Virus genome (UHGV): UHGV-1710946
Length of the DNA stretch: 10,331 nt
Strand: one strand, 5' to 3'
Origin: a virus
In this document: positions 1,047 through 1,408 of the stretch, piece after piece
How positions within the stretch are numbered: position 1 is the stretch's first letter
How the letters are laid out: every line of letters begins with the position of its first letter
The notes under the pieces: generated by a model
The model's input: the letters and a program-made list of their open reading frames with translations, nothing else
Told to the model about the DNA's origin: nothing
Database searches by the model: none
Made by a program: the position numbers and the translations under genes

Positions 1047-1122
1047 GGCCCTTTAGCTCAGTGGTTAGAGCTGGCGACTCATAATCGCACGGTCACCGGT
1101 TCAAGTCCGGTAGGGGCCACCA
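1047..1122 (+). tRNA. tRNA with CAU anticodon; acceptor stem and overall sequence resemble enterobacterial tRNA-Ile2 (lysidine type, ileX/ileY-like); automated tools may call it tRNA-Met
   Basis: 76-nt cloverleaf read directly: acceptor GGCCCTT/AGGGGCC (one G.U pair), D-stem GCTC/GAGC, anticodon loop CTCATAA (U33, CAT at 34-36, A37), T-stem ACCGG/CCGGT with T-loop TTCAAGT, discriminator A plus encoded CCA. The anticodon stem has a G27.A43 mismatch. It closely resembles E. coli ileX as recalled from memory. Confidence 0.9.
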
Positions 1123-1408
1123 TATTTGGTTGTAACACGGCGTCTGGCACATGCGTCGTTAGCGGTCTGGTGACGTTAAAAGGGGGGAACCTTGCCCCTA
1201 GCTCAGGCAACGAACCAGGTAGCCGGAATGTGCAAGCCACCGTTTGTTGTTTCTCGGGTAAAGGGATTCACCATCCTGGCGATTCGGTGTGACAGCCGGG
1301 AAGAGTCCGGCGCATTAATCCTGATTTTCTGGTGATGACTCATATCGTTAGGAGTGATTTGAGTATGCCGATTATATCTGACATTCAGCACGCCTGGGTG
1401 GAGTGCTA

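Follow-up and report, generated by a model that had tools for sequence, protein, structure and literature searches.

The tRNA-Ile2 gene beside the ban helicase of a P1-family phage-plasmid and the conserved RNA-like domain that follows it

Genes of tRNAs reading rare codons are present in different phages, such as the tRNA-Ile and tRNA-Arg genes of lambdoid and Stx phages and the tRNA cluster of T4, and tRNA genes commonly serve as integration sites. The gene trnI of phage P1 has carried the description 'tRNA-ile2 (CAT) gene; 89 pct identical to ileX' since the P1 annotation of 2004. Its counterparts in E. coli K-12, ileX and ileY, are chromosomal, whereas the P1-type tRNA-Ile2 is borne on a plasmid prophage. 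The locus considered here belongs to UHGV virus genome UHGV-1710946, from which a stretch of 10,331 bp was analyzed as a whole (hereafter, the window). Its tRNA gene is identical to P1 trnI at 76 of 76 nucleotides, and its right-hand neighbors are those of the P1 trnI locus (AF234172/NC_005856) from ban on. The left neighbor is different, namely tciABC in reference P1 and an SPFH cassette in the window. The tRNA is already known, as P1 trnI, and is ordinary in kind.

Over its full 10.3 kb, the window consists of P1-family phage-plasmid DNA. The best match is the E. coli plasmid pMTY1586_IncY (99.5%), 419 plasmids of PLSDB cover at least 80% of the window, and phage P1 isolates match it over the full length at 98.6% identity. 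Homology to reference P1, P7 and SJ46 (98–99% identity) begins at position 1038; for reference P1, identity over 1038–10331 is 98.7%. The closest complete relative (L002, 96,367 bp) contains repA, parA/parB, c1, terminase, phd/doc, darA and tail genes. The gene called dnaB in the initial annotation is ban (Pfam DnaB_C, E = 3.3e-108; DnaB, E = 2.7e-35), and according to the P1 annotation it is followed on the right by dbn, 5, 6, 24, 7, 25, 26, pmgL and pmgM. Whether the tRNA belongs to the host or to a mobile element had initially been left open. The P1 DNA and the identity to trnI bear out an element-borne gene; a host integration site is not borne out. Two records labelled as chromosome (NZ_CP178203 and NZ_CM148631) also match the whole 10.3-kb window, at 98.9%; they contain P1-like elements, either integrated or else assembled into the chromosome.

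The junction with reference P1 is located 9 nt before the tRNA, and block comparison of L002 with P1 demonstrates that the cassette of the window exactly replaces tciABC. Its SPFH gene (Pfam Band_7, E = 9.7e-31) lacks AUA, AGA and AGG codons altogether, in contrast to the rest of the element. PADLOC gave no match for the SPFH protein, the small membrane ORF or P1 TciA. On the other side, homology to phage D6 comprises trnI and the following ~190 nt (91%) and ends at ~1314. Since homology has its edges at 1038 and ~1314, the tRNA and the stretch following it form a conserved island between exchangeable cassettes (Table 1).

Table 1. Features of the tRNA–ban region in window coordinates
Feature	Position	Strand	Basis
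Accessory cassette: 3′ part of a 78-aa membrane ORF (to 211) and SPFH/Band-7 lipoprotein-like gene (192–1019)	1–1037	+	Pfam
tRNA-Ile2 gene, anticodon CAU, CCA encoded	1047–1122	+	ARAGORN, Rfam, P1 annotation (trnI)
Short leader UAUUUGGUUGUAACA	1123–1137	+	Found before the RNA domain in tRNA-less lambdoid copies too
Module A, conserved structured RNA-like domain	1138–1311	+	Comparative alignment, covariation
Module A, helix H1	1138–1158		
Module A, helix H2 (encloses variable hairpins)	1166–1219		
Module A, helix H3	1236–1280		
Module A, helix H4	1263–1277		
Module A, helix H5	1295–1311		
Module A, near-invariant 19-mer (GGTAGCCGGAATGTGCAAG; GGUAGCCGGAAUGUGCAAG)	1218–1236	+	
Module A, inferred pseudoknot 1	1147–1150 with 1230–1233	+	
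Module A, inferred pseudoknot 2	1269–1272 with 1286–1289	+	
P1-specific spacer with Shine-Dalgarno-like AGGAG (1350–1354)	1312–1364	+	Sequence; D6 homology ends at ~1314
14-codon upstream ORF MPIISDIQHAWVEC, AUA as codon 4	1365–1409	+	Sequence; preceded by AGGAG
ban, P1 DnaB-type replicative helicase	1409–2773	+	Pfam, P1 annotation

The distance of 286 bp between the tRNA and the helicase gene, reported initially, agrees with P1/RefSeq annotation (spacer 1123–1408, helicase ATG at 1409). The spacer had been treated as empty; in fact, it holds a conserved RNA-like domain (1138–1311), named module A here, which is common to unrelated phages. The structural evidence is provided by an alignment of 39 representatives and a model with five helices and two loop pseudoknots. 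Standard pairs make up 97.0% of the cells, versus 25–50% when the partners are slid by 1–3 columns, and changes on both sides are observed in 11 pairs (89 cells). The covariation score of 0.251, compared with 0.03–0.07 in the slid controls, was reached by none of 500 shuffles, a statistic that related sequences inflate. The functional strand is that of the tRNA, since G·U pairs are frequent on the plus strand. Thermodynamic stability of the spacer is unremarkable against shuffles (z = −0.49); the structure was found only by comparison, the fold energy being no better than that of shuffled sequences.

Every helix is kept in the P1 copy of module A. Both pseudoknots are putative: the first (GCAC with GUGC) involves invariant bases only, and in the second, a single kind of compensatory change, C–G to A–U, occurs in three sequences. 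RNAalifold proposed a long-range duplex of the 5′ part with the 19-mer. The local hairpin H1 with the loop pseudoknot was preferred to it, because a G–C to A–U swap is found in H1 in 17 of the 39 sequences. The 19-mer side is invariant, so that for this part the duplex and the H1/pseudoknot models are inseparable.

The first ~185 nt after the tRNA are 78–80% identical to sequences of unrelated phages. Among these are lambdoid phages, Stx2-converting ones included, mEp460, and epsilon15-like podoviruses such as phiV10; in phages of Stenotrophomonas, Enterobacter and Klebsiella, the match is limited to a shorter core. A search of 5426 complete E. coli genomes found the stretch in 1826 of them, at 1896 chromosomal places, and RefSeq gives no annotated feature under it among the E. 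coli matches listed. Retrieval by the 19-mer yields at least 120 contigs of IMG/VR, which represent 97 distinct versions, and 24 species-representative genomes, nearly all of Enterobacteriaceae. Most copies were gathered by this exact 19-mer, which biases the conservation estimate for the segment itself; in loci fetched by a different anchor, it is intact in 143 of 149 copies. No second copy of module A was detected by nhmmer in the P1 plasmid or in the K-12 stretches examined. Rfam 15 contains no relevant match (E ≤ 10) to the spacer, to eight diverse loci or to a full-length lambdoid copy, and a search of open-access text for six conserved strings of the RNA, as literal DNA and RNA, found no paper. 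Apparently, module A has no name in Rfam 15, in RefSeq/GenBank annotation or in open-access text.

A CI-type S24 repressor gene is located upstream of module A in 62 of 128 IMG/VR loci, with a CII-like gene divergent. The repressor gene is on the same strand and mostly ends 115–170 nt upstream of module A. In one E. coli chromosomal copy, a 700-nt unannotated gap between a cI-like gene and yfdP comprises a terminator-like hairpin after cI, weak promoter-like hexamers (recognized by eye), the RNA and a hairpin with a U run. Judging from this placement behind cI, the RNA would perhaps be made in lysogens. Of 130 copies, 46 have a tRNA gene at a distance of up to 1.5 kb from module A, invariably on its strand. 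In the P1 and D6 types, this is tRNA-Ile2, whose end is 2–4 nt ahead of the leader; in the others, it is tRNA-Arg(UCU), located 70–135 nt downstream. P1 and D6 appear to carry the RNA domain fused behind trnI. In the phage D6 record (L015, NC_050154), the tRNA-Ile2 (CAU) directly 5′ of the RNA element (2425–2500) is missing from the annotation, and the remaining tRNAs are placed by ARAGORN on the strand opposite to the annotated one.

In most members of the family, a long stem stands 3′ of module A and has within it a variable insert of 41–106 nt or more. The strands of this stem co-vary between subfamilies (CAACGAUGAGAGCA with UGCUCUCAGCGUUG versus CAACAGGUAAGAGCA with UGCUCUUUCCGUUG). A second stem (GUUGUGGUGA...UCACCACAAC) stands in place of the genuine tRNA-Arg of phiV10-type copies, and several members add a terminator. 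P1-type copies (12 of 128) comprise module A only.

Two further elements were observed in distant relatives, both being absent from the window. In a metagenomic phage contig (L067, 384–430, plus strand), the variable insert of the long stem after module A includes a type I hammerhead candidate with the core CUGAAGAG...GAAA...GUC, scoring 28.7 bits against a cut-off of 34. A hammerhead as a feature of the whole family was rejected, its regular expression matching 1 of 128 loci. In a distant full-length relative (L012, 2631–2750, plus strand), the RNA ends in a piece similar to the 3′ portion of RprA, a host sRNA (UUGCUGUGUGUAGUCUU), and a terminator; the Rfam score is 50.2 bits, the cut-off being 70. 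Similar strings are present in L019, L021, L082 and L115 and absent from the P1 copy. Such an ending hints at a possible Hfq-type sRNA module in the distant relatives.

Positions 1138–1311 could represent the 5′ domain of a structured RNA of several domains, hitherto undescribed, that is carried by Enterobacterales temperate phages and possibly has a function of its own, a reading for which confidence and doubt are evenly balanced. Where complete, this RNA would reach roughly 400 nt or more and contain no fewer than five covarying helices together with two pseudoknots. It may take part in the processing and stability of tRNA or mRNA, or in prophage–host or phage–phage interaction. For the P1 copy, we infer a ranking in which a functional RNA domain is first and an inert remnant second. 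A functional domain could be realized as a stable processed RNA or as a folded 5′ end protecting the ban mRNA once the tRNA has been excised.

The second reading, in which the P1 module A is an inert leftover of an acquired tRNA-plus-RNA cassette whose 3′ domains were lost at the joining to ban, is doubtful, though it deserves serious consideration. Conservation among P1 copies would then reflect merely recent common descent. This would agree with the continuation of most members into further conserved domains missing from P1, with the end of P1–D6 homology at the 3′ edge of module A and with the unremarkable stability of the spacer. However, module-A-only copies with terminator-like hairpins are also found in unrelated phages (L038, L051 and L094). 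Besides, in 13 variants of the P1/D6 lineage, the changes fall mostly in hairpin loops and other unpaired columns (30 of 110 vary, versus 6 of 64 paired columns), and pairing is preserved in all helices.

According to the P1 record, ban is under the C1-controlled operator Oban (former Op72) with promoters P1ban/P2ban, located ~2.6 kb upstream of the gene. A DicF-like region, tRNA-Asn, tRNA-Thr, tciABC and trnI lie between Pban and ban on the same strand. The Oban/Pban stretch is outside the window and is conserved in the closest relative (L002 1101–3139 versus P1 637–2671, 97%). The tRNA had been described as a lone one. This holds inside the window, but in the closest relative tRNA-Asn and tRNA-Thr are located ~2 kb upstream on the same strand. 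On the plus strand, a scan of positions 900–1600 revealed neither promoter-like nor terminator-like sites, including the interval from the tRNA to ban. Transcription of trnI together with ban, starting at Pban, would be plausible, and trnI would be cut from the longer transcript by host tRNA-processing enzymes. A strong terminator-like hairpin GTTTGCCCATCTTCGGGTGGGCGTTTTTTT is present outside the window in the DicF-like region (L002 2398–2420, plus strand), ~2.6 kb upstream of the tRNA and between the C1-controlled ban promoter and the tRNAs; therefore, a transcript initiated at Pban could reach the tRNAs and ban only by read-through, unless another promoter is used.

The TAA stop of the short upstream ORF overlaps the ATG of ban (TAATG). 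The ORF is present in 16 of 16 P1-type loci examined, with codons 3–4 (ATT ATA) kept and a variable C-terminus. This arrangement suggests that the ORF may be translationally coupled to ban, and ban expression could possibly be linked in this way to AUA decoding by the neighboring tRNA. The ban gene itself contains five AUA codons.

The tRNA is very probably the element-borne trnI, a tRNA-Ile2 which supplements scarce AUA decoding of the host, and not an attachment site. In 106 intact genes of the closest plasmid, AUA occurs at 10.3 per 1000 codons versus 3.5 in K-12, a 2.9-fold difference for which the host is represented by one 50-kb sample with 40 genes. The AUA share of Ile codons is 17% in the element and 6% in this K-12 sample, relative to which ACA, read by the element's tRNA-Thr(UGU), is enriched 3.1-fold. 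The mechanism would include conversion of C34 to lysidine by host TilS, leading to charging with isoleucine and reading of AUA, and trnI would thus supplement a scarce host tRNA in phage translation, presumably to the benefit of the phage. Codon supplementation fits the P1 tRNA set in part. The top ranks of enrichment belong to AGG and AGA, unserved by P1 tRNAs; AUA and ACA occupy the third and fourth places; and AAC, the codon of the third P1 tRNA (tRNA-Asn), is not enriched. In the D6-type relatives L071 and L108 (IMG/VR), the element is preceded by larger tRNA arrays on the same strand (Arg-UCU, Tyr, Thr, Ser-UGA, Ile2), among them the Arg-UCU tRNA missing from P1 despite its strong AGA/AGG enrichment.

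Such a partial mismatch between tRNAs and enriched codons could also be expected if trnI were mainly a spare against tRNA cleavage or depletion by defense nucleases, an explanation that overlaps with that by codon bias, and in reference P1 trnI adjoins the TerB-like tciABC genes. Nevertheless, no nuclease known to target tRNA-Ile2 was identified in this analysis, and an anticodon loop equal to that of ileX would provide no escape from a loop-specific nuclease. The role of a defense spare is unlikely, and the supplementation of AUA decoding is retained as the preferred reading of trnI.

ARAGORN detects a sole tRNA in the window, with the anticodon CAT on the plus strand; the Rfam tRNA model matches it with 64.7 bits (cut-off 29, E = 1.5e-12); and the sequence folds as a cloverleaf. 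In the Rfam alignment, G27·A43 at the top of the anticodon stem is the only non-canonical pair, so the sound CAU tRNA with this mismatch, as first described, was confirmed by ARAGORN, Rfam and folding. The tRNA shares with K-12 ileX/ileY the anticodon loop, the D arm, the discriminator A73 and the encoded CCA. It differs from ileX at 8 of 76 positions, having U6, U26, A43 and C44 plus a two-sided swap in each of two T-stem pairs (G49–C65 to A–U and U51–A63 to C–G). Since these two pairs are changed compensatorily, the tRNA fold is maintained. Four of five anticodon-stem pairs are identical to those of ileX, and the pair 27:43 is G·A here versus G·U in ileX; anticodon-stem changes can impair E. 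coli TilS (PMC11947777).

The CAU anticodon would also suit an elongator or initiator tRNA-Met. ARAGORN calls the gene tRNA-Met, and 'tRNA-Met' is given at the equivalent position of a P7-like plasmid (PMC5786510); these labels are explained by reading of the anticodon alone, which is the only basis of naming in ARAGORN. In RefSeq, all copies are labelled tRNA-Ile. In the alignment with K-12 genes, the tRNA groups with ileX and ileY (89.5% identity), apart from metT/metU and the initiator metY. Its acceptor-stem pairs 4:69 and 5:68 are both C:G, the state of E. coli tRNA-Ile2, whereas tRNA-Met has U4:A69 and A5:U68. The pairs C4:G69 and C5:G68 are major identity elements of E. coli TilS (PMC11947777). 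A tRNA-Met is highly improbable in view of these data, and the initial guess of tRNA-Ile2, for which a check of TilS elements had been proposed, is supported by them.

A comparably low probability is assigned to the reading of module A as a protein-coding sequence on the minus strand (window ORF 1203–1439). A stop-free minus-strand frame extends across the element in 48 of 97 unique copies, and one GenBank phage record annotates such an ORF as 'hypothetical protein' mEp460_037. At the same time, the two internal variable regions of module A differ in length by non-multiples of three, which rules out a conserved reading frame. Variation tracks base-pairing, as seen in the both-sided changes, and G·U pairs of the plus strand correspond to C·A on the other strand. 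RefSeq annotates nothing at module A in the E. coli matches listed.

The possible use of the tRNA gene for integration was checked by searching the window and the complete relative with 16, 20, 25 and 45 nt of the tRNA 3′ end and 25 nt of the 5′ end. As first reported, the window contains no integrase gene and, by exact and fuzzy search, no repeated copy of the tRNA 3′ end; in both sequences, each probe, including that from the 5′ end, hit the tRNA itself only. In the 96,367-bp relative, no second tRNA 3′ end was found with up to 4 mismatches per 25 nt or 8 per 45 nt. The sole tyrosine recombinase of this relative ('site-specific integrase') is located ~30 kb from the tRNA, and the P1-like order of the genes suggests that it is Cre. 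An att repeat and an adjacent integrase are not expected here, because P1 replicates as a plasmid. The idea of an integration site fails on the lack of a 3′-end repeat, the remote recombinase and the presence of RepA and ParAB plasmid maintenance genes. A host tRNA gene into which an island has integrated, as commonly happens at tRNA genes, its integrase and far repeat being out of view beyond the 10-kb window, deserves practically no credence, given P1 DNA on both flanks, the recurrence of the arrangement in 419 plasmids, the plasmid replication and partition genes of a complete 96-kb relative devoid of a second 3′ end, and the 8 of 76 positions at which host ileX/ileY differ from the tRNA.

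The tRNA closes the question from which the analysis started, being one more phage tRNA for a codon used more by the phage than by the host, and the record illustrates how callers that rely on the anticodon only mislabel tRNA-Ile2 as tRNA-Met. Beside it stands a strongly covarying RNA-like domain, left without annotation both in P1 and in the lambdoid prophages that about one third of sequenced E. coli carry. Its sites are telling, namely downstream of the gene for the immunity repressor and next to tRNAs for rare codons. If module A is a functional RNA, it would be a new and experimentally accessible case of the poorly understood tRNA-linked structured RNAs of phages. P1 and lambda-type genetics are ready for testing it.

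As in other phages with rare-codon tRNA genes, the P1-type tRNA serves a codon which its host uses less often than the phage does. In contrast to them, P1 has three tRNAs only, which are split by an accessory cassette and do not all match the enriched codons. The longer module A RNAs are similar to GOLLD and ROOL (Weinberg et al.) in being multi-domain, occurring in prophages and often standing beside same-strand tRNA genes. However, no Rfam 15 model, those of GOLLD and ROOL included, matches module A or its longer relatives, and the genomic habit alone is common. The module A RNA is shorter than GOLLD and ROOL, belongs to Enterobacterales rather than to Firmicutes or lake metagenomes, and differs from both in its commonest site, directly after a cI-like repressor gene.
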